This document shows positions 26,686 through 49,718 of a DNA stretch of 63,678 nucleotides, piece by piece; positions within the stretch are counted from its first letter, which is position 1; the number at the start of each line of letters is the position of its first letter. The notes below the pieces were generated by a model that ran no database searches, had not been told where the DNA came from, and worked only from the letters and a program-made list of their open reading frames with translations. A program made the translations under genes and the position numbers. Source of the stretch: Schmidtea nova. Taxonomy: Eukaryota. The DNA lies in assembly GCA_044892505.1 (NCBI GenBank), contig CM097883.1, positions 189,348,323-189,412,000 on the forward strand. Direction: 5' to 3'.

Positions 26686-26730
26686 GATTGGTCGGTCTAG
26701 ACACGACTGATCAGTATAAATACTGATCAG
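26686..26730 (+). promoter_or_regulatory. Candidate LTR promoter: inverted CCAAT box plus TATAAA inside a palindrome (copy at 52117-52161)
   Basis: GATTGG at 26686, TATAAA at 26715-26720, and AATAAA with a T/G-rich tract about 150 nt downstream. Confidence 0.6.
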
Positions 26731-28097: not shown

Positions 28098-28415
28098 TTG
28101 AATAAATGGCCACCTATTTTTGAATTTAATAAATGTTTTAAAGAAGTCTGAAGTGTCTCATTTTGTTAATAGTGTTGTCATGTAGATTTAGTATTGTAGT
28201 TGTTATAGTCATTAGGAAATTCATTTATTAATACAAAATTAGTTCAATAAACCTTTTGAGTCTTCAATGGTTAGATAGTTAAATACTTTTGTAAAGAACT
28301 CGATAATTAAAAACATTAGTATACATCTCGTTTAATAATAATAAAGAGTAGACTAAATAAAATAACATTGTTGATAGGTCCTCCAGCGAATTTATCGTTA
28401 TAATATTCAGACAAC

Positions 28416-29000: not shown

Positions 29001-29564
29001 GAAAACCTCAATGTAAAATAACAACCTGTCTTTATTATTTTAATAAAAGTATTACTGTGTAAAATTTTTCTCTCATCGTGTGAATTCACTAAATAAAATA
29101 AAATAACAATAGCTAAATCCTAGAAGTAAAAAATCGCAGCCGCATTTTCTCAAACCGACCGTTTCTACGCAGGGACTGATTAATTACATTGTAGATCAAT
29201 TAAGGAAAGTCGTTGGGAAAAGCGTATGATAGATCATAAGGATATGTAATACAAAATGCAGTAAGAAACGAACATCCATAGAATGTAAATGCGTAAGACC
29301 TTCTATCGGCAGCAAGGACCCGAGGGAAGATAAATGGGGAGTAGTTTTGGCAACAAAGCTCACCTGCCCATCATTTTTCCACCACCGTATGCAGTACCAA
29401 CTTGGCTAGTAGGGAATAGTCAAGGGCATACGCGTGTAGTAGTCATGTTATGTATGGTTATGGGCGTGGAATCCCTAGTATACGTACTCATCAACAGTCG
29501 TTCAATTAATGATTAACTATTTATTTGAATTACTTAAAACCCACCCATAATCCCAGCATAAATT

Positions 29565-29582
29565 TGGGGGCTCAGCCGGGAT
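29565..29582 (+). promoter_or_regulatory. Primer-binding site, tRNA-Pro
   Basis: TGGGGGCTCAGCCGGGAT lies 6 nt after the LTR end and is complementary to a tRNA-Pro-type 3' end (ATCCCGGCTGAGCCC-CCA). Confidence 0.85.
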
Positions 29583-29887
29583 CAACTTTGATTTTATGCG
29601 GAAAATGTGAACCCAATGACAACAGAGAAATTTAAAATCAGAATTTTGTGAGTAGAAATAGTAACCGAAAGAGTAATCGAGATAAAAGTGAGTTGCGTGT
29701 AAATAGATAATTACAAACAGAGAATTAAAACAAATTAGTAGATAAATTGAACAAATGCATTCATAAATAACAGGTCGGGACGACAATTTACTGAAACACG
29801 GGGGGAGGCTATAAAACTGTCAGAAACGAAACACAGTACTACTTTTCGAATAATATTAACACAGTAATTAAATAAATTATCTAGGAA

Positions 29888-30349
29888 ATGGAGGAAAAAC
29901 TGAAAGAAATCGAGGAATTTTTCAACACCGAGAACGATACATTTGAGACAGTCTGCGAAAAAATAACCCGAATAAGAGCATCCGAATATGAGGAACCTAC
30001 GACACAAACTGAGGAAACAACTGAGTTAATAAAAATCATAGAGAAAGTAAATAAACTCGATATAAATACGCGATATAAATGGTACAAAGCACGATTAGAG
30101 GATGCCGAGTTGAATATCAGATGCCGACATATAGAACAGCAGTTAAGCCTAACATATAACCGATGGATGTCGCAAGGGGTCGAAGCAGCAAAACAATATA
30201 AACAATGTTACATATGCGAAGACAGTGAAATCCAAATAATGTTTTTGCCATGTGGACATTTTCGATTCTGTAAAAACTGTGCGAATAAGTGTGATGAGTG
30301 CCCCATGTGCAGTTTCTCTGTAGCTGATAAAATTGTAGTTTATTTATAA
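29888..30349 (+). CDS. IAP-type C3HC4 RING finger protein (no BIR domain), 153 aa
   Basis: C-terminal CYICEDSEIQIMFLPCGHFRFCKNCANKCDECPMC...KIVVYL*, with the spacing and hydrophobic C-terminus of IAP/MDM2-class RINGs. AATAAA overlaps the stop. Confidence 0.85.
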   Translation: MEEKLKEIEEFFNTENDTFETVCEKITRIRASEYEEPTTQTEETTELIKIIEKVNKLDINTRYKWYKARLEDAELNIRCRHIEQQLSLTYNRWMSQGVEAAKQYKQCYICEDSEIQIMFLPCGHFRFCKNCANKCDECPMCSFSVADKIVVYL

Positions 30350-32164: not shown

Positions 32165-35100
32165 TTGAGAAAAGGAGAAAAGAGTGTCATAATAAAACCA
32201 GCAGAAAAGAATAAAGCTACCAAGAATAATAATCAGAAAGGCCTAAAAGGAAGTAAAGCAAGGCAGATAATAATACAAAAGTCGATTATCGAAAACGATA
32301 AATTATCAGTAACAAGCAACAGTTCAAGCAACAAAGAAAATCAAGCAGAACCCGAGAGAAACCCAATAAGTGAAATAGAAGTCGACAAAACCAACAACGA
32401 TTATATAGAAGAAATAGAAGACGAAGTAGAACAAGAAACAGAAAGTGACGATACCGATAACGATAGTAAAGCATCAGATAACGAATCAGCAAAAGAAACT
32501 GAGATCGACCGAAATTCGAGTGACGAACCTAACAGTGAACTAGAAACAAGAGGAAACGAAAGTAAAATAACTACAGACAGCGGAATTGAAATGAGCGAAC
32601 CCAGAGAAGAGATAAAAGACAAATTTTCCGGAGAACCGTTTAATGGAGATGCGAGTAAACTGGAAACTTTCTTAAAGGAATTTGGCATATTCGTGGAAGT
32701 ATGCAAGTGGAAACCAGAAACAACTGTAAGCAGAATTCAGCTATATTTGAAAGATAGCGCATTAGATCTATATTTGGAAGCAAAAAATGGAACTAATCCA
32801 CCTACAAGTTGGTCAGCGATAAAGGACTTTTTCCAACAAACCTTTGGAATAAACAAAGTATTGAATGAGGCATTCACGGAATTCTCAATGAGGAAACAAA
32901 AGATAAATGAATCGAATGCGGTATATGCAAGCGAATTGAAAAAGTTAGCAAAGTTGATCTTTAATCAAGACAGCCCAATAAATGAGGAGTTAATGGCAGC
33001 TATCTTTGTGGGAGGATTACGAAGACCCGACATAAGAGCGCAAGTTGGATGTCAAGGTTGTAAAACCATCGACCAAGCACTAGAAACAGCTAATAGATTT
33101 GAACTACACATGATAGGAAATGATGGTAGAATCTATTTAGCTATGGATACAGCACAAAACGAACAAGAAGTGAACCTGAATAACCACATTCCAAATTCAC
33201 AACAATTAAACCGACCACCACCGCAACGAAGGAATGAAGGGAATAAAGTATCAAATTACGGAAATCAAAACAATTACAACCCCCAAGGACCAACGAAACA
33301 ATGCAAAACATGTGGGAAATTGGGACATTGGCAACAAGAATGTTATCAGAACTTGAATTGTGGAAAATGTGGAGTAAAAGGGCATTCAGAGAGCAGATGT
33401 TACACAATAACCTGTTTTAATTGTGGACGACCTGGACACCTATCAAGAAATTGCGGACAAAGAAGCAATCAACGAGGAAACTGGCAGAATACCGGAAACC
33501 GACAAAACTATGGAAACCAACCAACTGTTGGAAACCGACAGAATTATGGAAATCAGCCAAATAATGGAAACCAACTGGAATACGGAAACCAACCAAATAG
33601 TAATAATAATAACCAAAATAAAAATACCACTAAAGAGATACATTTAATGCAAGAGGTTCAAAGATTGACGGAGCTGATAAACAATACAACCAGAGGAAAT
33701 CCGCAAACAGGTCAACAACAAATCAATATGATGAGAAAAATAGAAAGCGAAAACGAACGATTGAATCGGGAAAGTCAAGCACGACATGCTCAGGAATGGG
33801 CAAGAGTACAAAGAGAAGAGGAACAAAAACAGCAAGAAAGAGAACGACAACCTCTGAGAATCAATATGATGAGAGCAACCAATCAAACAAATTCCCACGA
33901 GAAAGAGACTACGCCGGAAATAAATTCAATGAAACCGAATCCAACTAACAATGAAGGACGAAAAGAAATAGTAAAAGAAGATGAAGAAGTAGAAAAAGAA
34001 ATAGAGAAGGAAGTGGAAACAGAGGCAAACCAGGAAGAGAAAAGAATGATTTGGAAAAAGGGAATGATGGTAATCCTGCCAAACGGTCATATGTTTCGAT
34101 TCCAATATAACATAAAGGAAGAAGTAGGAACATTGTTCAACAAAGTGAATGAAATGGCTCCAGGAGTAACGAAACTGCCCAGAGAAGCATTCCTAAAAAT
34201 AGAAGGTGCACCAGAAGTAAAATTGAAACTAACGGATACATGGGAAAACATGGGAGTAGTAGAGACAAAAAGAAATGTGATGGTAATCAAGGAAATAGAA
34301 CCAGAAGGAATTCCATCGCCAGTGCGTCACGAAACACGAATCAGTCGAATATTTAAAGGGAAAATGATACGAAGACGGTTGGGAGAAATAGACGAGTTAG
34401 AACGAAAATTGAGAAAGGTCGGAGTAGTAGACGACAAGAGTGAATCAACACAAAAAGCTATTAAAAGTGAAACAAGACCAACGGAAAATACACCAAGTGA
34501 AATCAACCAAATAAAACACATTAACATGTTGAGAGGCCAGGCAAAGAATTTTTCCGACGACGAAGAGGATAGTGACGTCAGTAGTCTAGCAGGGGACATG
34601 CTAGACGAACCGGAAATTGAAGACAAAAAGATAGAAGTAGTAAAGACACCAGAAACTATTCAAGTAAAAGAGGATGAGATCCAGAAATTATTAGATAACG
34701 CACTAGAAGTAATATATAATGAGGAATTCATCGACAAGAAACACTATCGGAAATTCATGAGAGCGATATTACAAATGAACTATAAAGAGTGGTTGCCAGG
34801 CCGGGAAGTAGAAACACTAAGCCAATACGTAGGAAAATTATTAAAAGAACCACTCCATGAATATATAATCCTAATAGAGATAAAAACATGTTTGCCAAGG
34901 ATTTGGATCAAAACTCCACTCACGGAAGATATTTATCAATGGGTAGAAGATAGATTAGGGAGTTCATATAAAAACAAATTCCTCTATTCACAGAATGGAC
35001 TAGTGAAGAAAAGGACGCATTTGATAGAAACAGGCATATGGCCAGGAGAGGTGACAACATTATCGATATGCGATGATAAGAGAGAAGAGAACCTACAAGA

Positions 35101-35170
35101 AGTAGCAAAGGAAGCAAATATGTGTTTCGAGAAGAAGATAAAACCACGGTTAGAATATGAGAAAGGATAA
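32165..35170 (+). CDS. gag: Gag (Ty3/gypsy capsid, 3 CCHC knuckles, Q/N-rich region) with a long C-terminal extension
   Basis: Capsid-like FNGDASKLETFLKEF...KQKINESNAVYASELKKLA; knuckles CKTCGKLGHWQQEC, CGKCGVKGHSESRC and CFNCGRPGHLSRNC. First in-frame ATG is at 32591. Confidence 0.93.
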   Translation: MRKGEKSVIIKPAEKNKATKNNNQKGLKGSKARQIIIQKSIIENDKLSVTSNSSSNKENQAEPERNPISEIEVDKTNNDYIEEIEDEVEQETESDDTDNDSKASDNESAKETEIDRNSSDEPNSELETRGNESKITTDSGIEMSEPREEIKDKFSGEPFNGDASKLETFLKEFGIFVEVCKWKPETTVSRIQLYLKDSALDLYLEAKNGTNPPTSWSAIKDFFQQTFGINKVLNEAFTEFSMRKQKINESNAVYASELKKLAKLIFNQDSPINEELMAAIFVGGLRRPDIRAQVGCQGCKTIDQALETANRFELHMIGNDGRIYLAMDTAQNEQEVNLNNHIPNSQQLNRPPPQRRNEGNKVSNYGNQNNYNPQGPTKQCKTCGKLGHWQQECYQNLNCGKCGVKGHSESRCYTITCFNCGRPGHLSRNCGQRSNQRGNWQNTGNRQNYGNQPTVGNRQNYGNQPNNGNQLEYGNQPNSNNNNQNKNTTKEIHLMQEVQRLTELINNTTRGNPQTGQQQINMMRKIESENERLNRESQARHAQEWARVQREEEQKQQERERQPLRINMMRATNQTNSHEKETTPEINSMKPNPTNNEGRKEIVKEDEEVEKEIEKEVETEANQEEKRMIWKKGMMVILPNGHMFRFQYNIKEEVGTLFNKVNEMAPGVTKLPREAFLKIEGAPEVKLKLTDTWENMGVVETKRNVMVIKEIEPEGIPSPVRHETRISRIFKGKMIRRRLGEIDELERKLRKVGVVDDKSESTQKAIKSETRPTENTPSEINQIKHINMLRGQAKNFSDDEEDSDVSSLAGDMLDEPEIEDKKIEVVKTPETIQVKEDEIQKLLDNALEVIYNEEFIDKKHYRKFMRAILQMNYKEWLPGREVETLSQYVGKLLKEPLHEYIILIEIKTCLPRIWIKTPLTEDIYQWVEDRLGSSYKNKFLYSQNGLVKKRTHLIETGIWPGEVTTLSICDDKREENLQEVAKEANMCFEKKIKPRLEYEKG

Positions 35171-35377
35171 AGTTCATATAAAAACAAATTCCTCTATTCA
35201 CAGAATGGACTAGTGAAGAAAAGGACGCATTTGATAGAAACAGGCATATGGCCAGGAGAGGTGACAACATTATCGATATGCGATGATAAGAGAGAAGAGA
35301 ACCTACAAGAAGTAGCAAAGGAAGCAAATATGTGTTTCGAGAAGAAGATAAAACCACGGTTAGAATATGAGAAAGGA
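34961..35377 (+). repeat. Exact 207-bp direct duplication (34961-35167 and 35171-35377) separated by an in-frame TAA
   Basis: Direct comparison; period 210 nt. Confidence 0.95.
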
Positions 35378-35911
35378 CGAATCCTACTAGGACATCTAAA
35401 TTCCATGATAGAACAAATCATCCCACAAATCAAAAAACATAGAAAGGAGTTAATGAGAAGCGAATACGAAAAGTTGAAACGATGTATCGAGTGCATACGT
35501 GACACAAGTCACACGAGATGGTCACAGATCTCATACGGAAAAGTAATTGCCAAAATGGGAAAAGCAATGTTTAGACAAGGAAAAATAACAGATCTAAAAA
35601 TTTCAGTGGAACTGCCTAATGAGGATACCAAGGAAATTGAAGTGGTAGCAGATTGTACCATAAAAGAATTAGTAAATGTCATCAACGAGACACTATTACA
35701 AAGAGAACCAGAAGAAGAATGGGAAGATGACATAATCATGAAATACAACGAACATGTATTATGGGATCACGATGAAAGACGGCTATATAAAATTGGTATA
35801 TGGGATAATCATCAAACCATCCACGTTATCAGAATGGACGATACACCAAGAGAAACTGCTAAGGATGAGAAAAGAGAACGGGAACGACAAAAAGAAGTTG
35901 TGCATAAATAA
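35171..35911 (+). CDS. In-frame continuation of the Gag extension, with a ubiquitin-like fold
   Basis: Same frame as gag; LKISVELPNEDTKEIEVVADCTIKELVNVINE...YKIGIWDNHQTIHVI has a beta-grasp pattern. Confidence 0.7.
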   Translation, partial: SSYKNKFLYSQNGLVKKRTHLIETGIWPGEVTTLSICDDKREENLQEVAKEANMCFEKKIKPRLEYEKGRILLGHLNSMIEQIIPQIKKHRKELMRSEYEKLKRCIECIRDTSHTRWSQISYGKVIAKMGKAMFRQGKITDLKISVELPNEDTKEIEVVADCTIKELVNVINETLLQREPEEEWEDDIIMKYNEHVLWDHDERRLYKIGIWDNHQTIHVIRMDDTPRETAKDEKRERERQKEVVHK

Positions 35912-38611
35912 CAACAAATAGTAGACATTTATCGAAATTGGCGGATTTGGCCAGAATGGGAAGATGTATTAGAAGAACTCAATCTCAACAGACGATTACT
36001 AACACCCGTAGAAAAGAAATGGAACGAACGAGGAAAATGTTGGGAACCAAAAGCAGGCGAATACGAAGAAGAATATGAAATGGGCATAGAAGACGATCAC
36101 AAACCGGAAACCGGAAGAGTCTGTATGGTAACAAGAAAAGCCATGCCAGCGGATTTAGACGGACCAGAAACGGCAACCATGTGGTTGGAAAGAGAGAAAC
36201 AAAAAACGGAAGAATTTGTCGAAATATTAAAAACCAATGCGCACGGCAAGAGAAAAGTAGTAAAAGGTCTCGCAGATTTTTTCGTAGTTAATGGAGAAGA
36301 CATAACATGCTTGCGTAAAGTAGCAAAAGCAATCGCCGAATACAAAAGAGTTAACGAGTGGTGTCCAGAACAATTGGATCACGTAATTAAAAAATGGAGA
36401 AACCAAGAATTCTCGCAGGAATCACCACAGAAAGTACACCTAAGAATAGTATATCCGAACCAAGAAAAGGAAGAATTTTGGGTAGGAATAGCGGAGAAAG
36501 TCCGAGACATTAAAAAGAAATTGAGATACGAACCACCATTCCATTTACAACACCAAGGACGATCATTAGATAACAGCTTGGAAATTGGAATAACGCCAGC
36601 GCAATTAGATATCGCAAATACATTGACAGTGGCAGCAATAGCAGGCCAACCATTGAAATTGAAAGAGGAAAAGAAACCAAAAGGAAGTATGAGTACGCCG
36701 AGCCCAATGAAATCTGTAATGACTCCAGGAACAAGCTCAGAACAAGCTAGAACAACACCAAGAGAGACAAGAGAAAGAACACCACCAGAACCATACGATG
36801 TAGACGAAAATTTTACAGATAGCGATGATATGTTAGAGGAGTTAATAGAGCTAACAAAAGAGAAAGATGATAATATTTTCGAAAGAATTCAAGAATTACC
36901 AACAGCAATACCGGTAACCAACACCGAAGATGAAGTTGAACAAGAAATAATCATCGAAGAAGTAAATGAAATAGCAGAAGAGGAAGCAAGGAGGGCAAAT
37001 GTAGAAAATGTACAATTCACACAAGAAATGGAAAGATGGTTAGAAGAAAGAGCCAATGAACCAAGAGACGTCACAGAAGAAACGGGACGAGAAACAAGAT
37101 TAGTAGAAACGGGCACGACAATGGACAAACGACCTAGAGGTAGACCCAAGATGGATCCAGCAAATGTAGTTATAAAATCAAGAGAGGAAAAAAGACGGGA
37201 TCAATGGGATTTGTGTCTAAAGAAACTAAATAAAATAGCCGAAACGAAAGAAAAAGAAACAACACAAACATACCAAGGCGAGGAATGGATATCAAAGATG
37301 TTAATGGAAATACTGGCAATAATCGATCCGGAATTAAAGAAATGGTGGAGAATAAACGAAATAAGCGAAAGGGCGAAATCACTGCATAGCGCCATCGCAC
37401 CAATCCTACCAGAACTAATAAAAGAGAAGACAATGTCAAACCACCTAGATTGGCAAGGAACCACGATGTTGATAAAGAAGTTAACGGAAGGAGCAGAGAC
37501 GGATAACAAATATTTAATAGCTATGGCATACACCATTTACAATCTGTTGACACTGAGTAGAGGTCGACTGAAACCCACAGCACTCGAAAGACATATAAAG
37601 AATACAGCCAAAATTATAGAGAAGGAAATAGAACCGTACATCATCAGTAAAGGAGGATGGGAAACATTCACAAAAACGAACCAAAAGAAAAACCAAGCCA
37701 AAAATATGAAAAGGAAATTCGAAGAGATATTGGGAGAATTGGAAAAGGAAAAGTCGGGAACAGGAAACGGGAAATCATCACTAAACTTGAGTTCTATCAT
37801 TATGATGATGTTAATATGGATGATTAGTACTGACGGAGCAACAGCATTTGAAGTATTCGATTGTGATCAAATGGCATTAGGTGAGAAATATTCACTACGA
37901 GGGACAGAACAATGTAAGGACGCAACCCCAACGGAGCTAAAAACATTAAAAAAGAGACAATTATACCACGTATATCAGGAAGCTGAACTGATAAGAACAA
38001 TGGTCAGAGAATGCAAAGTTTATAAAACCAGATTTGCTTTTTATTGTGGGCACCGCCATTATTCAGCAATCGTGATGCCAGGAACGGAAAGAGAATCGGT
38101 AATGCTGCAAGGAGAAGACTGTGAAAAATTATTCAAACATGGAGAAGTAGAGACTAGAGATAGAGTAAAGATAAGAGGAAAAACGGGAGTAATATTACAA
38201 CAAACATATTATGTAGCAGGAGCTATTACGGGAGGAGAAGGGTACTGCCAAGGAGCAACATATCCAATATTCGGAGTAGCAGCAACAAACCTAGTGGTAA
38301 TAGATACGTATACAGTGGAACTAAAAACGTACGAGGCATTCTTCGATCCAACGACGGGAGAAATGAAAACTCTACCTATGTGCAAAATCGAGTCAAACAC
38401 TTGTCAGACTGGTATGTCAACCCTAACCTACCAGATACGAGGAAAGGAATGTCAACTACAATTGCTAAAAGAAGCAGAATTCGACGAGATACAAGGGAAA
38501 ACCTTCCAAGAGGAAGAAGAAGACGAGGCAGCAAGAGGAAAAATACTTCAAGACACCGTACGAGGAGAGAAAAAGATCGAAATACGAACACAAGAAAACA
38601 AATTAAAATGA
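35912..38611 (+). CDS. Polyprotein segment: Ubl-like domain, AT-hook, Bcl-2-like domain, signal peptide, N-half of chuvirus-like glycoprotein
   Basis: The frame is open directly after TAA 35909-35911 (ORF-track start 36080). Motifs: KRPRGRPK; EIEPYIISKGGWETF; IIMMMLIWMISTDG followed by FDC...ECKVYKTRFAFYCGHRHYS. Confidence 0.8.
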   Translation, partial: QQIVDIYRNWRIWPEWEDVLEELNLNRRLLTPVEKKWNERGKCWEPKAGEYEEEYEMGIEDDHKPETGRVCMVTRKAMPADLDGPETATMWLEREKQKTEEFVEILKTNAHGKRKVVKGLADFFVVNGEDITCLRKVAKAIAEYKRVNEWCPEQLDHVIKKWRNQEFSQESPQKVHLRIVYPNQEKEEFWVGIAEKVRDIKKKLRYEPPFHLQHQGRSLDNSLEIGITPAQLDIANTLTVAAIAGQPLKLKEEKKPKGSMSTPSPMKSVMTPGTSSEQARTTPRETRERTPPEPYDVDENFTDSDDMLEELIELTKEKDDNIFERIQELPTAIPVTNTEDEVEQEIIIEEVNEIAEEEARRANVENVQFTQEMERWLEERANEPRDVTEETGRETRLVETGTTMDKRPRGRPKMDPANVVIKSREEKRRDQWDLCLKKLNKIAETKEKETTQTYQGEEWISKMLMEILAIIDPELKKWWRINEISERAKSLHSAIAPILPELIKEKTMSNHLDWQGTTMLIKKLTEGAETDNKYLIAMAYTIYNLLTLSRGRLKPTALERHIKNTAKIIEKEIEPYIISKGGWETFTKTNQKKNQAKNMKRKFEEILGELEKEKSGTGNGKSSLNLSSIIMMMLIWMISTDGATAFEVFDCDQMALGEKYSLRGTEQCKDATPTELKTLKKRQLYHVYQEAELIRTMVRECKVYKTRFAFYCGHRHYSAIVMPGTERESVMLQGEDCEKLFKHGEVETRDRVKIRGKTGVILQQTYYVAGAITGGEGYCQGATYPIFGVAATNLVVIDTYTVELKTYEAFFDPTTGEMKTLPMCKIESNTCQTGMSTLTYQIRGKECQLQLLKEAEFDEIQGKTFQEEEEDEAARGKILQDTVRGEKKIEIRTQENKLK

Positions 38612-41600
38612 GAAATACACCAACGGTACTAATTACCTCAGATGCAGATATCGGAATGAGGTTTGTAAAAGGAAAAACAGCTTTGAAATGCGGAGTAGCC
38701 ATGTTGGAAACCAACTACCCCGGCATTTTTGTATCAAAGCAAGAAGTACCTAGAGCGAAACGCAAAGTGCACACGAACGATGTTAAATTACACCTGTACA
38801 TGAACAATAAAATGGATTTTCTATTCCATAGAGGACAAGCGTCACTACAAAAAGTGTATTACGATTTAATAAATAACGATTGTATATTAAATAGGGAAAT
38901 ATTAAAGACAAAACTAGCAGTAGCAATCACAAACCCGGATAGTGCAATGCCACTATTACCATTAAGAGAAGGTCATTTTGGAAGAGTAGTCGGAGAGGTC
39001 ATGTACGTATACATATGTAAAAAGACAAATGCGAAGGTAGCGACAATGACAAAACTACAACCAGGTCAGTGTACTAACGAACTAGAAATCGAATATAAAG
39101 GGAAAGTAAGATATGTACAACCAGTGACAAGAATCATAAATCCAGTAAGTTTCGAACCAAACCCTTTCAATTGTAGCAACGCATATGGACCACTATACCA
39201 AAAACCAGACGGAAATTGGGTTATGTTTCCGTCAAGAACAGAGGTACCAGCACCAAGGGAATTTGAATTGATGCAACTATCAAAAGGGCGAAAATTCAAA
39301 GACGTAGATGTAAGTAATATGGGATTCTATAGCGCAAAAGACTTAGAGGCAGCGAGACAAAACATACTATTTCCAGCAAGAAGGGAAGCGGTGTTATCCA
39401 GCATTGTAACAATAACAGGAGGAACAAATTACCAAGGTGGACCAAATTACGAATTATTATTGTCACCAGCCCACTTTAAGAAGGCAACGGAAAACATGAT
39501 GAAAGCGATGTGGGGAAGATTTTTAATATTTGGACAAATGATGGCAGGAATACTTGGTGTTATACTAATTATACAAATAATACGGGTAATAATAACGCAA
39601 ATGTTAGCCTGTTTTGACATCTATAAACGAGAAAAGAAAGTAAATTGGAAATTGGTGGTAGGATTCTTACCATTTCTGGCTAAAACAATGGTATTACACG
39701 GTCATTCAAAAGATATTCACCGAATAAAGAGACTCCTAAAAATACTGGCAAAAATGAAAGGAACCGATGAAGAGGTGGGACGAAAATTTAAAAAGATAAT
39801 GAATAACGAGCAAGCAAGACAACGACTCAAGAAAGAGAGAAAAGGACTATGGGAAAGAATGAAAGGGTACAGAACCCAAGACGATTCCAGTGACGACGAT
39901 GATGATGATAACGAAGGAGGTCAAGTATTTAAAAACCAAGTACCAAAGTACGTCGAAAAGAATCCAGCGGAAATGTGGAAGTGTTACGCACCCCCACCAA
40001 CCATGTACCAAGAACCAACACCAGGGATGAGACAAAATACAATGCAAATGATGCCGATGACAAACATATATCCTATGATACCAGAAGACTATAGAACGAG
40101 ACGGTGCAGAAGCGTAGATCCGCAAGGAGACTCACATACAATTGCAGTAATGTCATCAAACACCGGTCCAGTATTAACTACAACAATCGAAATTAACGGA
40201 AGGGAAATTGAAGCGATGATTGATACAGGAGCAAATATCTCAGCAATAGATATAAAATGGATACCACAAGAACAAAGACGGGATATTGAGAGAACCAACG
40301 TTCACGTAATAGCATGCAGTAAAGAAGTAGTAGAAGTTGCCGGAAGATGGTGGGTAAAGATAAAACATCAAAACACGGAAATCGAAACGTACGTAGCAGT
40401 AATACCAGCACTGAGCGTACCATGCATTATAGGCACGGATCTGATGCCAGCATTATTTAAAGAAATAGTTATTGACCTCGGAACAATGAGATTAAAGGAT
40501 AGGACAGGACAGATATGCGCAATAGAAGCAAAAGTAACAAGTTCGAAACAAATAATCGTACCAGCACGGAGAGAGAAAATATGCTTCGTAAAAATAGATC
40601 CTACAATAGAAGGTGATATGATCTTTGAACCCAGTAAAAGATTTGAAAAGAGAAAGTCGTTGCCAATGGCAAGGGGATTAGTGAGTGCGAATGACAACGG
40701 AGAAATCCCAATAAATGTAGTAAATTTCGATGAAGAGGATAAAATAATTTATGAAAATGAAAGACTAGGTAAACTAACTCCAATGATGGATATCGAAATA
40801 CCAATAAAAGAAGGAGTAAAAGAGGAGGAACCCACCTGGAACATTGATAGCCAACTACTAAATGAGGATCAAAAGAAACAGCTAGAAAGGTTACTGATGG
40901 AATATAAAGACATATTCGCAGCATCCGATTTAGATCTAGGGACATGCGACGTCACACTACATACGATTCCACTAACAGACGAAACGCCTATTGCGTTAAG
41001 ACCATACAAGTTAGCTGAAGCGCAAAAATCAGTAGCAGAAGCAGAAGTACAGAAAATGCTAGACGCAGAAGTAATTGAACCAAGCTGCTCACCGTGGCAA
41101 TTCCCAGTTGTAATGGTGAAAAAGAAAGACGGAACACAACGGTTTTGTATTGATTATCGGAGATTAAATGCGGTAACAAAAAGGGATACATACCCATTAC
41201 CAGACATCAACGAGATGTTATTGACATTACAAGGAGCGGCATACTTTACATCATTGGATTTGAAAAGCGGATACTGGCAAATTAAAATGAAAGAGGAAGA
41301 CAAAGAGAAAACTGCTTTCACTATCGGAAGAGACTTGTACCAGTTTAGGAAAATGCCATTTGGACTAACCAATGCGCCAGCATCATTTCAAAGATGTATG
41401 AATTTCGTTACCCACGGCATAAAACAATGCATGGTTTACATTGACGACCTACTGATCTACTCAAGCACATTTGAACAACACATCCAAGATATCAGAGATG
41501 TATTTGTTAGATTGAGACAATGGAAACTCAAGCTCAAACCATCGAAATGCGATTGGGCAAAGGAGAAAGTGACATTCTTAGGACATATTGTGTCCGCAAA

Positions 41601-42843
41601 AGGAAAGGAACCAGATCCCAGAAACATTGATAAAGTAAAAGAATGTCCAGTACCAAAGACGATAACGCAGATCCAAGAATTTCTCGGATTATGCGGTTAC
41701 TATAGAAAATTCATAAAGGATTACGCAGGAATTGCAAAACCAATCCAGGAGCTAGTAAAGAAAGACGTATCGTTCATATGGGGAAGCGAACAACAAACAG
41801 CCTTCGAAACATTACGAGATAAGTTAATAACTGTACCAATATTGGTTCACCCGGATTTCAAGAAGCCATTTTTACTCGCAACCGACGCAAGTGGATATGC
41901 AGCAGGAGCAGTGTTAGGACAATATGATGACGAGGGAAAAGAGCGGGTAAACGGATATTATAGCAGAACATTCAAGAAACACGAGAAGAATTATTCAGTA
42001 ACGGAAAGAGAAGCATTGGCAATAATATTAGCAATAAAACACTTTAAATATCTATTATGGGGACACGTTATATGCATAACCACGGATCATCAACCACTTG
42101 TATGGCTAGGACAACATAAGGAAACATCCAGCAGATTAATGAGATGGGCGATGCAATTACAAGAATATTCACCAGATATAAAATTCAAATCAGGGAAAGC
42201 GAATGCCAACGCAGATTGCATGTCAAGATTAACGTTTCCAGAACTAACAGACCCAGAAGTGCAAAGAATATGCATAGTGATAGCAGAGGATTTGGATTTC
42301 AGCGAGTTAAAGAAAGATCAGCAAGAGGATAAAGAACTAAGACCCATCATAGAATTCCTAAGCTCACGGAATATGGATGTATTCAAAGACAATACGGAGT
42401 TAAAAGAACACATGAGGAAATACCAACATCGATACACAATAGAAAAAGGATGGTTGTTAATACAAGATGGAGAAAAACGATTAATGTGTCTGCCAGGTAA
42501 TAGACGAAAAGAGATAATAACTCAATACCATGACGGAAAGTTGGGAGGACACATGTCCGATAAGAAAACATTAGATCGCATGAGACAAAAATATTATTGG
42601 CCAACAATGGACGAAGACGTAAAGGAATGGATAAAGAACTGTTTAACTTGTGCCACAAGAAAGGATAGTGGGAAGAAATGGAAAAATCCCTTAAAACCCA
42701 AGCCGATACCAGCAGAACCAATGACTACCATTGCAATGGATGTAATAGGACCATTGCCAGAAAGTTTAAACGGGAATCAATATATATTGGTAATAACGGA
42801 TTATTTGACTAAATTCCCTGAAGCATTTGCGATGCCGGATTAA
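38380..42843 (+). CDS. pol: C-half of the glycoprotein (with TM) fused in frame to Pol: protease, RT, RNase H, integrase zinc finger
   Basis: PR MIDTGANIS (40222); RT FCIDYRRLN, PFGLTNAPASFQR and YIDD (41437); RH LATDASGYAAGAVL; IN HDGKLGGH...CLTC and MDVIGPL. Ends at a TAA where the consensus has Gln (MPD*KAKTVA). Confidence 0.96.
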   Translation: MQNRVKHLSDWYVNPNLPDTRKGMSTTIAKRSRIRRDTRENLPRGRRRRGSKRKNTSRHRTRREKDRNTNTRKQIKMRNTPTVLITSDADIGMRFVKGKTALKCGVAMLETNYPGIFVSKQEVPRAKRKVHTNDVKLHLYMNNKMDFLFHRGQASLQKVYYDLINNDCILNREILKTKLAVAITNPDSAMPLLPLREGHFGRVVGEVMYVYICKKTNAKVATMTKLQPGQCTNELEIEYKGKVRYVQPVTRIINPVSFEPNPFNCSNAYGPLYQKPDGNWVMFPSRTEVPAPREFELMQLSKGRKFKDVDVSNMGFYSAKDLEAARQNILFPARREAVLSSIVTITGGTNYQGGPNYELLLSPAHFKKATENMMKAMWGRFLIFGQMMAGILGVILIIQIIRVIITQMLACFDIYKREKKVNWKLVVGFLPFLAKTMVLHGHSKDIHRIKRLLKILAKMKGTDEEVGRKFKKIMNNEQARQRLKKERKGLWERMKGYRTQDDSSDDDDDDNEGGQVFKNQVPKYVEKNPAEMWKCYAPPPTMYQEPTPGMRQNTMQMMPMTNIYPMIPEDYRTRRCRSVDPQGDSHTIAVMSSNTGPVLTTTIEINGREIEAMIDTGANISAIDIKWIPQEQRRDIERTNVHVIACSKEVVEVAGRWWVKIKHQNTEIETYVAVIPALSVPCIIGTDLMPALFKEIVIDLGTMRLKDRTGQICAIEAKVTSSKQIIVPARREKICFVKIDPTIEGDMIFEPSKRFEKRKSLPMARGLVSANDNGEIPINVVNFDEEDKIIYENERLGKLTPMMDIEIPIKEGVKEEEPTWNIDSQLLNEDQKKQLERLLMEYKDIFAASDLDLGTCDVTLHTIPLTDETPIALRPYKLAEAQKSVAEAEVQKMLDAEVIEPSCSPWQFPVVMVKKKDGTQRFCIDYRRLNAVTKRDTYPLPDINEMLLTLQGAAYFTSLDLKSGYWQIKMKEEDKEKTAFTIGRDLYQFRKMPFGLTNAPASFQRCMNFVTHGIKQCMVYIDDLLIYSSTFEQHIQDIRDVFVRLRQWKLKLKPSKCDWAKEKVTFLGHIVSAKGKEPDPRNIDKVKECPVPKTITQIQEFLGLCGYYRKFIKDYAGIAKPIQELVKKDVSFIWGSEQQTAFETLRDKLITVPILVHPDFKKPFLLATDASGYAAGAVLGQYDDEGKERVNGYYSRTFKKHEKNYSVTEREALAIILAIKHFKYLLWGHVICITTDHQPLVWLGQHKETSSRLMRWAMQLQEYSPDIKFKSGKANANADCMSRLTFPELTDPEVQRICIVIAEDLDFSELKKDQQEDKELRPIIEFLSSRNMDVFKDNTELKEHMRKYQHRYTIEKGWLLIQDGEKRLMCLPGNRRKEIITQYHDGKLGGHMSDKKTLDRMRQKYYWPTMDEDVKEWIKNCLTCATRKDSGKKWKNPLKPKPIPAEPMTTIAMDVIGPLPESLNGNQYILVITDYLTKFPEAFAMPD

Positions 42844-44793
42844 AAAGCAAAGACCGTAGCAAGAATTTTAGTAGAGGAAATATGTTGTCGATACGGAACC
42901 CCGAAACAAATACTAACAGATCAAGGAACAAATTTTATGAGCGAAATACTAGATGAAGTAACAAATTACTTCAGAATAGCCAAATTACGAACGTCACCAT
43001 ATCATCCGCAAACCAACGGACAAACGGAAAGATTTAACGGCACATTGATTCGAATGTTATCCAATTATGTAAGCAAACACCAAACAGATTGGGATGAATA
43101 CGTAAAGCTATGTCTAATGGCATACCGAATGTCGATACACGCAGCAACAAAATTGAGTCCATTTCAATTAATGTATGGAAGGGAATGCAATATGCCAATA
43201 GATCTTGAATATCAACCACCTTTGTCTCAATATATGGAGGAAGATGATTACGTCACCAAATTCAAAGAACGAATGCAAGAGATATGGAAGACAGCAGAAC
43301 TAAACATAAAGTTTTATCAAGAAAGTTACAAGGACCTACACGATCAAAAGAAAAATGTTAAAACAAATGATCTTAAACCCGGAGATTGGGTAATGATAGA
43401 AACCCCAGAAATAATACCAGGAACCGTTAAAAAACTACAAAGACCAGGAAAAGGCCCTTACGAAGTTATATACAAAAAGGAAAACAATGTGAAGGTAAAA
43501 CTTGTTAATCGACCATTGATACGACCAATATACGTTAATACATGCAGATGTAAGAAAGTACCAAAAACAATAACCACAGCGCCAGAAGAACGAATAATAA
43601 CCAGATCCCAGACAGCCAGAATGAATATGCTCAGAGCAACCAATGAAAGTACCGAAGCAGAAAACAATCAACAAGAAAAAAGAAACAAGGAAATGGTACT
43701 AAAAGCCAGAGAAATAATGGGAAAATGGCATGTCAGAGACGATATATTAAGAGATATTCAGTCGATAATTAGTGATTACGCAAGGGGACTACCAACAAAA
43801 CCAGTCATTTCAGAACTACTGGAAAAAATTCCAGAAATACTTTCACTAGAAGACATAGGAGGACAACCAGCATTACATAACGCCATAAAATGGGGAGAAG
43901 TAGAGAGAGTAAAAGAATTTCTAAAAATCGCTAAGGAAACAAACCAACACCTTGGTTTTGGGAATAGCGAACAAGAAACACCATTAATGGTAGCAGCCAT
44001 CTACAAATCGGATAAAGCAATAATAGACGTTTTGATAAATGCCGATTTCAACTGGACGGAACGCGATAGAGAAAACAAAACAGTCTTGAATCACGCAATA
44101 TGGAGCTCAAATCAGATAATGCTCAAACAAATAATCGAGAAGGCCACTTGGGAAATAGACGAACTGATCAAAGGTGATATAATCAAGGAGGCAATAAAAA
44201 TCGGTAACTGCAAAACAATACGCAAGCTAATAAAATGGAAAAGATCCGAAAATGATACATGGGTGTTAAATATAAACGAGGTATACAGTGAAGGGCAAAA
44301 CACGTTATTACAATTCCTATTAAAATTAGTTTGTGATCAGAAAACACTGTTAATATTATTGGACAGAAGAAATATTACAATTTCCAAAAACAAAGAGGAG
44401 TGTAAATTCGAAAGTGAAAAAGAAGCATTATTCAGGAAAATTAGGGAATGGTGTGCAAAATCGCTAACCAAGACGATGACTTACAAAGATATATCCAATT
44501 TTCAAGATAAATACAAAACGGTGGAGGAAGAGTATGACAAACTAATAGACATATTAAACCACCCCGAAAAATGCAAACAATTCCTATGTCAAAAGGAAAG
44601 AGAAAGCAAAAGGAAATTTACACCACTTTTCAGCGCAGAGGTACCCTATCAAGAAAGGTTAGATGCGATACAGGACAAAGCAAAAGAACTATTACCAGAA
44701 TTCGAAAATTCTAAACATACACTGGAGATACTCGGATCAATTGTGGAAAGGTACACGCATATGCGGAAGGGACTTACAATGAAAACGATATGA
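42844..44793 (+). CDS. Integrase core and GPY-like C-terminus followed by ankyrin repeats
   Basis: Same frame as pol. ILTDQGTNF, TSPYHPQTNGQTERFN and KGPYEV, then GGQPALHNAIKWG, ETPLMVAAIY and KTVLNHAIW. Confidence 0.9.
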   Translation, partial: KAKTVARILVEEICCRYGTPKQILTDQGTNFMSEILDEVTNYFRIAKLRTSPYHPQTNGQTERFNGTLIRMLSNYVSKHQTDWDEYVKLCLMAYRMSIHAATKLSPFQLMYGRECNMPIDLEYQPPLSQYMEEDDYVTKFKERMQEIWKTAELNIKFYQESYKDLHDQKKNVKTNDLKPGDWVMIETPEIIPGTVKKLQRPGKGPYEVIYKKENNVKVKLVNRPLIRPIYVNTCRCKKVPKTITTAPEERIITRSQTARMNMLRATNESTEAENNQQEKRNKEMVLKAREIMGKWHVRDDILRDIQSIISDYARGLPTKPVISELLEKIPEILSLEDIGGQPALHNAIKWGEVERVKEFLKIAKETNQHLGFGNSEQETPLMVAAIYKSDKAIIDVLINADFNWTERDRENKTVLNHAIWSSNQIMLKQIIEKATWEIDELIKGDIIKEAIKIGNCKTIRKLIKWKRSENDTWVLNINEVYSEGQNTLLQFLLKLVCDQKTLLILLDRRNITISKNKEECKFESEKEALFRKIREWCAKSLTKTMTYKDISNFQDKYKTVEEEYDKLIDILNHPEKCKQFLCQKERESKRKFTPLFSAEVPYQERLDAIQDKAKELLPEFENSKHTLEILGSIVERYTHMRKGLTMKTI

Positions 44794-47762
44794 TGATCAT
44801 AAAAAGAGAAATGCCAGTGACTTTCTTATTAACAAAGAATGGAGTATTGCCAATACATAGAGCCTTACGAGCAGGAAAAGATAGGAGGGTAGTCGAAATT
44901 GCACGGTTGATGCAAGATTGCGGAAGTGACATGAACATGAAAGATAAAAAGGGAGATACCCTCATGATATTCGCAGCAAGAGCGAACACAAAAACCCGAG
45001 TGTTACAGGAACTGTACGAAGCAGGTGCAGGACTCATGGGAAGAACTAACAAAGACAGCTCAATACTAGACGTAGCGTTGTTAGCGCACAATTGGGAGGT
45101 GATAAATTTCATAAAAACAATCACAAATCAGGAGGAAATAGAATACCTTACAAGGACAGTTAAAAAAGCTAGCGTACATTCCATGATGCATAACGCTGAA
45201 CTAACTGAAGCAATACTCAATTGGATGAACCCAAACACCAATGAACCAGCATTCAGGATCAACGAGTGCATGGAACAAGGCCAAAATTTGTATATAAAGT
45301 GTGCATTAATAATAAACAAATGGCCAAAGATAATAGATATCTTCATGAGAAGAAAAGATTTACGATTCACAAACCACCCAAAGGAAACAGAACGTACGGA
45401 CAAATGGAAAGAACTAATGAAAACGTACCTCAATAATTGGATAAAAGCCAAGAAAGAGATTCTAGATTGTAAATTAACCGATAAGGAAATACCTAAGCAG
45501 GCAGAAACACAAGAATATGAAGCAAGTATACTCACAACCATAACGTATGAAAAAATGATAGAAGCAATTAATGTCGAGGACGACATTTTCAACGACCAAA
45601 GGGAAGGCGACAATACAGGAAACGACGACGATAGTACTCGAGAAAATCCAGAGGATCATGAGTTATCAGATAAAGAGGACAGTGAAGAGAAAGGAAGGGA
45701 CACAGAGAAAAATGATAAGAACAATGAATTTGGGAAACAAAGAAACAACAACTATAAAAATAAAAACGAAATAAAAAGAACAGGCTACAAACAAACAATA
45801 AACCCATTCTTTAAACCAGAACTATTATTACTAACGGTAATCATGACCTTAATTAGTCCAACTCAAGGAATGATATGTGAAGAAAGAGCGACAATACAAA
45901 TTGGAAACGCAAAAGGAATCGAACGAGTATGTTGGTCAAAAAAGGACAAAATATCGGGACAAAATAGTCCAATGGATTGCAAGATCTCAGAATACGAACA
46001 AGAAATCATAGAGATCGATGACCTAGAGCTAGATACTTGGTACAGAATGTGCACCGTTCGGAAACCAAAGGATCCGAGATCACATAAGACAATTGCATGT
46101 GCAAACTACCTAACGCCCAAAGTAACCATAACAATACAGCAGTCATCCAAAGGAGACTATGTTGTAGGAAAGTGTGGAAGAACAGAGACACAAGGAACAA
46201 AAAACAAGAAACCCCAGACAATAGACAGACGAACAACGCCAACTATACGAATTACCATAGACAAGCCCGAAGCAAGAGTAACCACAAACGAGACCGAAAG
46301 AGTGACTTACCAAACAGAATTACTATGTTTAGCACTCATATTAACAATGTTAAAACGGTTAGAAGAAGGGATAGACATTGACACAATGGCAGTAACAGAG
46401 ATGAACGACACCCAAAACACCAACCCAAAGTGTTATGCCAGAAGCAACGAAGAAATTGGCGTAAGCGAAATAAAGACGAGTCGGAAAAGGGAAACAAATA
46501 AAGTAACCAAGATATCAGAAGTAAAAGCAGACAGGACGTATGAACTATGTTTACTAGAAAAAGAAAGACACAAGAAAGGAACGACAATTTGTAAAACATT
46601 TCAACCTGGGGAAACAATAAAGTTCATAAGAAGAAGAAGAAGAAATATACGCACCAAACGGAGGACAACTACAATGTTAGAGTTAACCGGAATAGAACCG
46701 GACGTCAAAGGCGTATGCTGGAAGAAGCAGGAAAAGAAAACAAACCAGAATACACCGCCGCAATGTCGAACAAACAGAGGAACAACCACAATACAGATAG
46801 AAGGGTTAGAAAGTAATCAAACGTACGAAATATGCCTGATCAGGAAGAGCGACAAAATAACAGTAAATGAACTGGAATGCAAAATATATAAAACACCCAC
46901 CAGAACAAAAATTGGAAAGACATCGCGAAAAAGCAGAAGACAACGGAACAAAGGAAAAGCGAGGTATACCACTACTTTTAAACCTAATGGACAACAGAAA
47001 AACCAAGAAATACAAATAAAAACCGAAAAGAATACTACAGCAACTCTTATACTATGGAGAATAGACAATAAAACGTTAGAAATATGTTGGGTAATAGTTC
47101 AGAAACAAAGGGAAAGACAGCCACGAGACTGTGGAAACGTGAAAGGAAAAGAGGAAATAAGTATCAGGAACCTGAAATTCAATAGCGAATACGAGATATG
47201 TGCGATAGAAAAGACGGACATATTGGGAAATCAGCAGGAAAGATGCGAAACGTACTACACACCGGTAAACTCAACGTCCAAAGGGAAAGTGAGAAAACTC
47301 GAATTTAAAGAATTAAGTCAGACAACGAAACAAATGGACGCGGAACAAGTAGTAATAGACCCTTACGCAAGATGGACGCCGGAAGAAGTAATTAAAGAAG
47401 TTAAAAGAAAACAACAAGAACGAGAACAACTACTAAATAAACTAAAGGGACAATACGGACCAATGATTAACCAGAGTGAAATTACGAAGATGGACGTAAA
47501 CAAACAAGTTAGAGAACTAATTGGTCTAGGAATACTAGCAGCAACTATTCCAGTAATAACAGTATTATTAATAATATGGATATATGATGTATTCAACAAG
47601 AAACCAATAACACATTGGCCAGATATAAAGATTATGAACTACAGTATAGAATTACCGGAAGAAGTACATAAAGAATTCCAAAGGAGGACGAAAGGTAAAG
47701 AATTTTGGAGACAAATAGAAGATGAAGAGCGATACGAAGGAAAGACAGTGATGGTGATATAG
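44790..47762 (+). CDS. Ankyrin repeats plus internal signal peptides, FN3-like repeats and a C-terminal TM helix, 990 aa
   Basis: ANK: VLPIHRALRAG, GDTLMIFAARAN, SSILDVALLAH. Repeated ..CW.....C....I.I.GL....YEIC units. TM LIGLGILAATIPVITVLLIIWIY. Confidence 0.75.
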   Translation: MMIIKREMPVTFLLTKNGVLPIHRALRAGKDRRVVEIARLMQDCGSDMNMKDKKGDTLMIFAARANTKTRVLQELYEAGAGLMGRTNKDSSILDVALLAHNWEVINFIKTITNQEEIEYLTRTVKKASVHSMMHNAELTEAILNWMNPNTNEPAFRINECMEQGQNLYIKCALIINKWPKIIDIFMRRKDLRFTNHPKETERTDKWKELMKTYLNNWIKAKKEILDCKLTDKEIPKQAETQEYEASILTTITYEKMIEAINVEDDIFNDQREGDNTGNDDDSTRENPEDHELSDKEDSEEKGRDTEKNDKNNEFGKQRNNNYKNKNEIKRTGYKQTINPFFKPELLLLTVIMTLISPTQGMICEERATIQIGNAKGIERVCWSKKDKISGQNSPMDCKISEYEQEIIEIDDLELDTWYRMCTVRKPKDPRSHKTIACANYLTPKVTITIQQSSKGDYVVGKCGRTETQGTKNKKPQTIDRRTTPTIRITIDKPEARVTTNETERVTYQTELLCLALILTMLKRLEEGIDIDTMAVTEMNDTQNTNPKCYARSNEEIGVSEIKTSRKRETNKVTKISEVKADRTYELCLLEKERHKKGTTICKTFQPGETIKFIRRRRRNIRTKRRTTTMLELTGIEPDVKGVCWKKQEKKTNQNTPPQCRTNRGTTTIQIEGLESNQTYEICLIRKSDKITVNELECKIYKTPTRTKIGKTSRKSRRQRNKGKARYTTTFKPNGQQKNQEIQIKTEKNTTATLILWRIDNKTLEICWVIVQKQRERQPRDCGNVKGKEEISIRNLKFNSEYEICAIEKTDILGNQQERCETYYTPVNSTSKGKVRKLEFKELSQTTKQMDAEQVVIDPYARWTPEEVIKEVKRKQQEREQLLNKLKGQYGPMINQSEITKMDVNKQVRELIGLGILAATIPVITVLLIIWIYDVFNKKPITHWPDIKIMNYSIELPEEVHKEFQRRTKGKEFWRQIEDEERYEGKTVMVI

Positions 47763-47887
47763 GAGGCGGGATATGACTGTAAATAATAGTGTAAATAACA
47801 ATGCATTACCGTAATAGTATGGGTATCGATATTATAAAAATATAAAAAGAGAAATCGAGAAAACGATTAATGTATATAATTTAGAAA

Positions 47888-48244: not shown

Positions 48245-48335
48245 ATAAATAAAGCGAAAAATTGTAAATATGTAAAAACAAAAACAAGAAAAATCAAAAA
48301 ATAGATAACAAATCAAGTGTATATATCATTGTAGA

Positions 48336-49718
48336 ATGAATACAGAAGGAAAAGCCGAAGAGCGGATAATCGAAATTTTGAGAGCCGAGAACAGGAAATG
48401 GAGTCAGAGACTCACTTGTGTAAATTGTAAAAACATAATATTGAAACCAAGACAAACCCTATGCGGATGCAGAGTATGTACCAAATGCATACACGAGTTA
48501 AGTATGAAAAGACCACCAGAATGTCCAGAATGCAAAGAAGGACAAATAAAATTCGAAGAAACCGGACCAGATAGAGCAACTCAGAGAGAAATCATGAACA
48601 CGAAAACCGAATGTATAAATCAACCATGTATATGGCAAGGACAAATACGCGATCTCGAGAACCATCTGGAGAACTGCGAAGAGAAGAGAACTGAATGTAA
48701 CAAATGCCAACAAAAAATAACTATAAAGAATAAAGAGCAGCACAAAGATGAATGTAAAGAAGAGGAAAGTCTATGCGAATATTGTGGAACTCGAGAAACG
48801 AGGAGAAAGATCGAAGAAGAACACCTGAATGTAAAAGAGGAGAAAGTATGTAGACAATATGTAGGAATATGTTCAAACGAATGCGATATAACGGTAGAAG
48901 TAAAATTACAAGAACATTGGAAAGTGTGCACGGAGAAACCAAGGGAATGCCCTTATAACAAACAGGGATGTATGGAGAAAAGAACGCAAAAAACCATGAA
49001 ACAACATCTGGAGGAAGCATTGCTAAAGCATGCGGAAATGACAAACGAAGCAACAAAGGAAACCGAACAAACAATCAAAAAATTAGAAAGAGAAATAGAG
49101 TCACACAAGATAATGGTAAACCTACTGTTGGAAACCAGAGAGCAATTCGAACTAACACGAGAAAAGATGGAGGAAAAGATAAAAGCTATCGAAGAACTGG
49201 CTAAAGGAATGAAAATCCAGTACAACAAACTCACCCAGGATACCGAGGAAAAGTTACCAATCGCACCATATGTGTGGAAAGTGACAGATTTTAGAGACAA
49301 ATTAACAGAGGCCAGAAATATGACGAAAACAGCAGTAATAAGCCCACCATTTTATTTATGGAGAAACGGAGCTAAAGTGAGATTGAAGCTATACCCAAAT
49401 GGAGACGGAAGAGGACGAGGAACACATGTGTCAATATTTTTCTCGCTATGTAAAGGAGAATACGACGACCTAGTAGAATGGCCCTTGAAAGTAGGAGTCA
49501 TTGTAAGAATCAGAAGTGTAACAAAACCAGTAGAAAAATTCTTTGAGACAGAGAAACATGCGAGTACGAGCGAGAAACCAACCACAGAATGTGGATTAGC
49601 AGCGGGAGAACCGATGTTTATAACGAAAGAAAGCCTATGGGAACGATTATATGCAGACACCCTATACATAGAAATGGAAAGGAATGAGAAAGCGGATAGA
49701 AAAGGATGGTTGACGTAA
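48336..49718 (+). CDS. Full-length intronless TRAF-like protein (RING, TRAF zinc fingers, coiled coil, MATH/TRAF-C), 460 aa
   Basis: RING CVNC...PRQTLCGCRVCTKC...CPEC; C.N..C.W.G...LENHL..C; TRAF-C YVWKVTDF...SPPFY...LKLYPNGDGRGRGTHVSIFFSLCKGEYDDLVEWP. Confidence 0.93.
   Translation: MNTEGKAEERIIEILRAENRKWSQRLTCVNCKNIILKPRQTLCGCRVCTKCIHELSMKRPPECPECKEGQIKFEETGPDRATQREIMNTKTECINQPCIWQGQIRDLENHLENCEEKRTECNKCQQKITIKNKEQHKDECKEEESLCEYCGTRETRRKIEEEHLNVKEEKVCRQYVGICSNECDITVEVKLQEHWKVCTEKPRECPYNKQGCMEKRTQKTMKQHLEEALLKHAEMTNEATKETEQTIKKLEREIESHKIMVNLLLETREQFELTREKMEEKIKAIEELAKGMKIQYNKLTQDTEEKLPIAPYVWKVTDFRDKLTEARNMTKTAVISPPFYLWRNGAKVRLKLYPNGDGRGRGTHVSIFFSLCKGEYDDLVEWPLKVGVIVRIRSVTKPVEKFFETEKHASTSEKPTTECGLAAGEPMFITKESLWERLYADTLYIEMERNEKADRKGWLT

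Follow-up and report, generated by a model that had tools for sequence, protein, structure and literature searches.

How would a retroelement make its polymerase if a viral-type membrane fusion protein stood between its gag and its pol, in one reading frame with both? This question is raised by a locus of Schmidtea nova, which we examined within a stretch of 63,678 nucleotides (the window; assembly GCA_044892505.1, contig CM097883.1, positions 189,348,323 to 189,412,000 of the forward strand). An initial annotation, made from the letters of the window, had described a chuvirus-type glycoprotein placed between gag and pol and running into a DTG protease. On re-reading the sequence, we found each of the motifs that it quoted in place.

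The element that carries the env region

The env region belongs to a 28,670-bp LTR element that spans 26320-54989 and has an internal part of 22.2 kb. Its TG...CA LTRs, its target-site duplication and its PR-RT-RH-IN order, with gypsy-type profiles, are features of Ty3/gypsy elements (Metaviridae). The 5' and 3' LTRs show 2 differences over 3,239 bp, and the 18-mer listed below as primer-binding-site-like is one that we take to correspond to tRNA-Pro. Within the long coding region the A-over-T skew is 0.39, compared with about -0.03 and -0.06 in the flanks. Outside env and the C-terminal region, which are listed later, the element has the following features.

26315..26319 (left) and 54990-54994 (right), plus strand: target-site duplication, 5 bp, ATTTT (sequence)
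26320..29558, plus strand: 5' LTR, 3,239 bp, TG...CA ends, two short ORFs within (LTR comparison, sequence)
29565..29582, plus strand: primer-binding-site-like 18-mer (sequence)
29885..30349, plus strand: accessory ORF with a C-terminal IAP-type RING finger (PF13920, E 1.2e-11; open in 20/20 copies)
32591..33500, plus strand: Gag from its first Met, with three CCHC knuckles; opens the long ORF (PF00098, E 4e-8)
34961..35377, plus strand: 210-bp tandem duplication with a stop (absent from 20/20 copies)
35582..35851, plus strand: ubiquitin-like domain, weak (PF18036, E 0.029)
37202..37690, plus strand: BCL2-like helical domain, weak, immediately 5' of the env signal (PF00452, E 0.13)
40180..40452, plus strand: aspartic protease, DTG at 40222 (PF00077, E 1.5e-8)
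41116..42168, plus strand: reverse transcriptase and RNase H (PF00078, E 4.6e-38; PF17917, E 1.2e-36)
42493..43500, plus strand: integrase, with an in-frame stop in the window copy (PF17921, PF00665)
43870..45113, plus strand: two ankyrin-repeat blocks (PF12796, E 3.9e-9 and 0.0013)
48309..49718, plus strand: accessory TRAF-like ORF with RING, zinc fingers and MATH (PF22486, E 6.9e-21)
51751..54989, plus strand: 3' LTR (LTR comparison)

The Pfam matches follow the order RING (in its own ORF), zinc knuckles, Monjiviricetes_fusion (in two frames), aspartic protease, RT, RNase H, integrase, two ankyrin blocks and TRAF/MATH (in its own ORF). This order, together with the sister copies described below, confirms that env lies between gag and pol. 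Giant size, a single ORF1-like frame and an env in frame between a BCL2-like domain and PR are features of Burro elements (GYPSM1). Of the Burro-type cargo, ankyrin, MATH and RING are strong by Pfam and the ubiquitin-like domain is weak. The BCL2-like region scores E 0.00096 in one relative among public proteins (P0006) and is similar to another (P0004) at E 2e-7, and the TRAF-like ORF is complete or almost complete in 19 of 20 copies. A BIR domain gave no Pfam match in the ORFs of the element that were scanned. A dUTPase-like domain was also sought between PR and RT, where 40531-40791 has no Pfam match at E<=1; the region is conserved in sister families. Its sequence identifies the region as the env gene of a giant Ty3/gypsy element of the Burro type, of which this is a new copy, the Burro assignment being made by likeness to published descriptions.

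Several other conserved or repetitive features accompany these domains. Three tandem-repeat blocks, with units of 30/31, 41 and about 45 bp, lie at 30761-31633, in the part of the 5' leader that separates the RING ORF from gag. The two ORFs inside the LTR (27576-28097 and 28404-29000, and again in the 3' LTR) are open in nearly all of 20 copies and have no convincing Pfam match. Near the 3' end there is a conserved coiled-coil-like accessory ORF (49808-50892), which is frameshifted in the window and about 365 aa long in 20/20 copies, and a conserved 193-aa ORF (50965-51546) with a strong TM (KD 3.16). Outside the element, a second short IAP-type RING-like fragment at 58405-58719 adjoins a masked stretch, and decayed pieces at 3559-4779, 8863-10650 (minus strand), 17520-18164, 23745-23999, 55554-55757 and 59644-60030 (minus strand) resemble hAT, Tigger/pogo, mariner and Penelope-type elements in their motifs.

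The window copy itself carries lesions. Its duplication, stops and frameshifts are common to none of the other copies read, and its coding region has 35 synonymous and 28 non-synonymous changes and 2 stop codons unseen in 20 other copies. The two ankyrin blocks, for example, are separated by a frameshift in the window and lie in one frame in 20/20 other copies. The LTRs, by contrast, are nearly identical. Many of these lesions may predate the last insertion, with movement in trans; alternatively, the LTRs may have been homogenised, or some of the lesions may be assembly errors.

Identity of env and its reading frame

The env region consists of the following parts.

37787..37846, plus strand: predicted internal signal peptide 1, predicted cut after ...GATA (sequence)
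37847..39519, plus strand: ectodomain of a predicted class III (chuvirus G / gB-like) fusogen (Pfam, sister copies, predicted model)
39538..39594, plus strand: env transmembrane helix, KD 2.57 (hydropathy)
39595..40179, plus strand: predicted cytosolic tail from the env TM to the protease, without a stop (sequence; open in 39/39 copies)

In the window these parts are divided between two ORFs: 35912-38611 carries the signal-like stretch and the ectodomain's N-half, and 38164-42843 carries the C-half, the TM, the tail and the DTG protease. The N-half matches PF24664 (Monjiviricetes_fusion) at E 2.4e-19 over profile positions 6-208, and the C-half matches the same entry at E 2.5e-51 over positions 244-579. 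Both are above the curated cut-off for PF24664 and are therefore not chance. Eleven Cys are nearly invariant across 122 sequences, and the h-region of signal 1, followed by a YDC or FDC start, is the same in relatives and sister families.

We folded the env of a sister copy (L004) with a 102-sequence alignment rich in chuvirus-like proteins, obtaining a model with a mean pLDDT of 89.1 and a pTM of 0.72. When this model was compared with viral models using Foldseek, chu-like virus glycoproteins were the best matches (E 1e-41), a result that is partly built in because the folding alignment was rich in chuvirus-like proteins. Among solved structures, herpesvirus gB was best (E 6.7e-14), with TM-scores of only 0.35-0.42 in most of the top rows. 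The env sequence profile reaches gB weakly (E 0.006), and a single env sequence gave 0 matches to solved structures. The initial annotation had made its reading depend on profile or structural matches to viral glycoproteins, and such matches were found to PF24664, chu-like glycoproteins and gB. Env is a class III fusogen with a gB-like fold according to the predicted model, and it would presumably be active in fusion.

The label 'chuvirus-type' stands at the level of the protein family, by PF24664 and the model matches, and goes no further, since env is only about 20-28% identical to chuvirus-like G; of the ten top env matches looked up, the one that bore a virus name was a chuvirus glycoprotein. 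These comparisons point to kinship with chuvirus G at family level only and do not imply a recent or direct capture from a chuvirus.

For the reading frame, we searched the genome of origin at the DNA level, scored the best 40 of 1,085 candidates (97-100% identical) and read the 39 copies besides the window. The copies were picked as best matches over env, so the sample favours intact env. The frameshift that had been placed at about 38,600 is real in the window and is absent from 39/39 other copies, and so is private to the window. The run from the env TM and tail into the DTG protease without a stop, which the initial annotation described, is present in the window and in every one of the 39 copies. 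The order is likewise conserved, since the env halves lie in one frame in 39/39 copies with no stop between TM and protease, and 37/39 are open all the way from the signal to the protease. What had been missed is that env is also in frame with the upstream gag; since it is in frame with both gag and pol, the unit is one gag-env-pol frame. In 20 of the 39 copies we read three overlapping stretches of 10 kb one at a time: 19 copies have an open gag stretch, 14 an open middle, 18 an open downstream stretch, and 12 are open in all three. The frame of the family comprises about 5,140 codons from stop to stop, from gag to beyond integrase, or about 4,990 from the first Met.

Further families were found in the same genome by a search with a divergent env homologue (87 scored of 3,300 candidates). 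Compared with the window, they are 33-41% identical in env and 46-52% in RT. TM and PR share one frame in 21/22 copies of each of two other families, and in 7/7 stretches of others. A set of stretches, L080-L096, represents at least three more single-frame gag-env-pol families of about 3,000-3,400 aa, without BCL2 or ankyrin matches to the probes from the window. Having the same fusion in 39/39 copies and in divergent families excludes an assembly artefact or a chance fusion of env.

Among public proteins, 990 match env at E<=0.001. We scanned 18 of these relatives, taken from the top and the longer matches: in 11 a single chain holds env followed by an aspartic protease, and in 5 of these RT is present too; the other 7 end early, have no protease match or are env-only. 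Six relatives (P0001, P0002, P0003, P0004, P0009 and P0015) have at least two aspartic-protease-like domains 3' of env in one chain.

Selection on env and predicted membrane topology

Across 20 copies, piN/piS is 0.03 and 0.02 in the two halves of env, 0.00 in the TM, 0.04 in RT, 0.02 in RNase H and 0.06 in integrase. It is 0.23-0.31 in the ankyrin regions and 0.35 in the C-terminal ectodomain described below, which evolves faster than env (0.02-0.03). Variants shared between copies in the env ectodomain comprise 44 synonymous changes and 1 amino-acid change. Among these copies, which were picked by env match, env is under purifying selection as strong as that on RT, and the combination of many shared synonymous with almost no shared amino-acid variants indicates that env is needed while the element multiplies. 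Two other families have few variants, with piN/piS of 0.21 and 0.09 in env versus 0.15 and 0.31 in RT.

The frameshift inside the window's env could be taken to mean that env is a decaying captured viral passenger whose frame with pol is incidental. This reading is refuted, however, because the break is private, with 39/39 other copies reading across it, because env has, with RNase H, the lowest piN/piS of the polyprotein, and because the env-protease fusion is kept in divergent families.

Between 39520 and 40270, which covers the TM, the low-complexity tail and the start of the protease, the 39 copies have 0 shared amino-acid variants in 250 codons, as would be expected if the stretch is translated. 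Synonymous variation also dips here, with 14 shared variants in 250 codons versus about 7 per 50 nearby. In single-ORF retroelements such as copia, splicing determines the Gag:Pol ratio, and with that precedent the dip could mark an RNA signal. The single genomic frame would then be real, but Pol and Env would come mostly from spliced or internally initiated messages, and Pol would not normally be the tail of a fusogen. We find this unlikely: the dip did not recur in two other families, for which reason an RNA signal between TM and protease was dropped as support; families whose env is only 33-41% identical retain the frame; and the stretch is free of shared amino-acid change. Three contig sets aligned on 31500-48500 have flat cover, low-depth joints and no shared splice pattern, and are uninformative on expression.

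Translation of the frame as one chain would have consequences for its topology, which we read from hydropathy and the translated sequence. In the long frame, the hydrophobic stretches that are strong or signal-like alternate as signal, TM, signal and TM (37787-37846, 39538-39594, 45822-45869 and 47520), with one further weak stretch inside the protease. Signal 1 lies below the 19-residue hydropathy cut-off and has a 13-residue KD of 2.36. The second signal and TM enclose a region near the C-terminus, as follows.

45822..45869, plus strand: predicted internal signal peptide 2 (hydropathy, translation)
45870..47519, plus strand: second predicted ectodomain, with four FN3-like repeats, 18 Cys and 7 N-glycosylation sequons (sequence, repeat comparison)
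46629-46661, plus strand: polybasic furin-like cluster (sequence)
47520..47762, plus strand: second TM (KD 2.65), short tail and stop of the long ORF (hydropathy)

The four repeats are mutually similar (pairwise E 2e-13 to 8e-4). Their matching to FN3 is weak, with Pfam fn3 at E 0.14 on one repeat and an Atlas score of 0.87 that is a lead only. Fibronectin gave the top structural matches (E 1.7e-4) to an ectodomain model of low confidence (pLDDT 40), and one FN3-like repeat compared with solved structures gave nothing below E 0.46. A search for relatives of similar length to the C-terminal membrane protein returned none at E<=0.001 among 5,933 candidates. An end made of signal, ectodomain and TM is nevertheless present in 3/3 long relatives that extend well past integrase (P0001, P0005 and P0012) and in 2/4 sister families; a third has only a TM-bearing tail in a broken frame. 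The fourth sister family (L080, L092) has a single hydrophobic stretch at the end and no clear second membrane protein. The four-repeat profile did not detect the C-terminal ectodomains of other families (best E 0.2), so position and topology are shared and sequence is not demonstrably so. From these patterns, the polyprotein likely yields a second surface protein beside env.

We consider it probable that this single frame, with env inside it, encodes a polyprotein of about 5,000 residues that passes the membrane four times and is cut by host signal peptidase and by its own protease. Gag, with the ubiquitin-like and BCL2-like domains, would be made in the cytosol. Signal 1 would send the env ectodomain into the ER lumen and then be cut, giving env a free N-terminus, and the Gag-BCL2 part would stay held by the signal stub. 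The env TM would stop transfer, so that the tail, PR, RT, RH, IN and the ankyrin repeats would be cytosolic. Signal 2 would then send the FN3-like ectodomain into the lumen, closed by the last TM. With membrane anchors on both sides of it, Pol would be a cytosolic loop anchored at both ends and no longer joined to Gag. The proposal of the initial annotation, in which Pol would be a tail of env on the cytosolic side and so tethered to the membrane, fits the hydropathy pattern.

On the 3' side of the env TM lie basic residues and another, weaker hydrophobic helix (KD 1.39). Since this helix is conserved in relatives and sister families, it might be a second membrane pass, which would make protease and RT luminal or change the whole topology. 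Its hydropathy in four families, however, is 1.16-1.44 where the TM scores 1.81-2.57, and Lys, Arg or Pro occur within it. In addition, RT and integrase need access to RNA and the nucleus, and signal 2, which comes after integrase, requires a cytosolic N-side. A second pass is accordingly very improbable.

In the four-pass arrangement, Pol would likely reach budding sites as the tail of env and then be released by the protease. A short motif resembling a protease site turns up repeatedly, on either side of PR, in the interval from RNase H to integrase and again beyond integrase; the pattern is loose and also matches inside domains, and the cuts are putative. A Gag:Env:Pol ratio of 1:1:1 is unusual for retroelements and may need regulation that is not seen here. 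Flavivirus and alphavirus polyproteins, in which capsid, internal signal, glycoprotein, TM and further proteins follow one another and are cut by host and viral proteases, offer an analogy only; their proteins are unrelated to env here (class II fusogens, RNA replicase), and no homology is claimed.

Env trimers would then likely mediate the entry of particles into other host cells. Processing could also take place as proposed while env acts without free particles, fusing or bridging neighbouring host cells for direct passage of capsids. An FN3-like protein at the cell surface, made from the same polyprotein, would be suited to such cell contact, and selection on env cannot tell particles from cell fusion, but class III proteins of the env family are virion proteins in the matched viruses, and we regard bridging as quite unlikely.

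Relation to published elements and significance

An in-frame env between gag and pol has already been published. Arkhipova & Yushenova 2019 (PMC6431247) describe, for planarian Burro elements, an env in frame with BCL2 before it and protease after it, an internal part of up to 25 kb in a total of about 30 kb, an ORF1 of about 4,900-5,100 aa, a 5,140-aa ORF1 in a Dugesia tigrina Burro-like element and a dUTPase-like domain between PR and RT of Burro. The element described here resembles Burro1-4 / GYPSM1 and the D. tigrina ORF1 in having near 30 kb and one ORF of about 5,000 aa. It shares with Burro the Gag with three CCHC, the ubiquitin-like and BCL2-like domains, the in-frame env, PR, RT, RH, IN and ankyrins, an env that matches mononegavirus fusion glycoproteins, and TRAF/MATH and IAP-type cargo. 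In contrast, TRAF/MATH here occupies its own ORF downstream of ORF1, whereas it is inside ORF1 in Burro1 and in an upstream ORF in D. tigrina, and the IAP-type ORF here has a RING and no BIR by Pfam, unlike Burro. For the Burro env the same text leans on gypsy Env/F-type homology, whereas the fold predicted here is class III, and it makes no mention of signal peptides or a second membrane protein. Elsewhere, BURRO1 RNA is reported in planarian tissues after loss of a PIWI protein (PMC8532177), and a 2026 study of a Burro1 IAP gene is cited in PMC13465017.

A 2026 eLife paper (PMC13524379) reports GAG-ENV-POL elements with a gB-type env in Nematoda, Bryozoa and Platyhelminthes, including six planarian elements, Smed_errantivirus_1-6, in Platyhelminthes group C1a; its LTR search left out LTRs >14 kb apart. 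The element here is like these HSV/gB-type errantiviruses in its GAG-ENV-POL order, class III env and many near-identical copies, and the printed env segment of Smed_errantivirus_5 is, judged by eye, the closest to the window env. In its main text we found no mention of single-frame processing under the usual terms, and we found none of the C-terminal membrane protein in the text of either this paper or PMC6431247 (figures aside). The four-pass topology or the C-terminal membrane protein may already be in print elsewhere. What we add to the published in-frame env is the selection data on env and the predicted four-pass topology with a second surface protein.

The glycoprotein G of Chuviridae (PF24664) and the env of the mosquito BEL/Pao element Anakin (PMC7642597) belong to the same protein family and share its Cys pattern. 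Chuvirus G is a stand-alone gene in viruses, whereas env here lies in the gag-pol frame and is no closer than the identity given above. In a BEL/Pao-like relative (P0052), env lies behind DUF5641 and no protease follows.

Burro-type elements might, as a tentative and rather doubtful extension of these findings, be retroviruses in all but name. Their particle would come from one four-pass polyprotein with a signal-anchored Gag, a class III fusogen whose Pol tail replaces the Gag-Pol fusion and takes Pol into the bud, and a faster-evolving FN3 surface protein that partners the fusogen in attachment or as an immune decoy. That env is kept as strictly as RT is an argument that the multiplication of these very abundant elements requires membrane fusion. 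If the proposed processing is true, Pol would be separated from Gag and have a membrane anchor on each side, a way of packaging unlike the Gag-Pol fusion of other LTR elements, and the envelope would gain a second surface protein.
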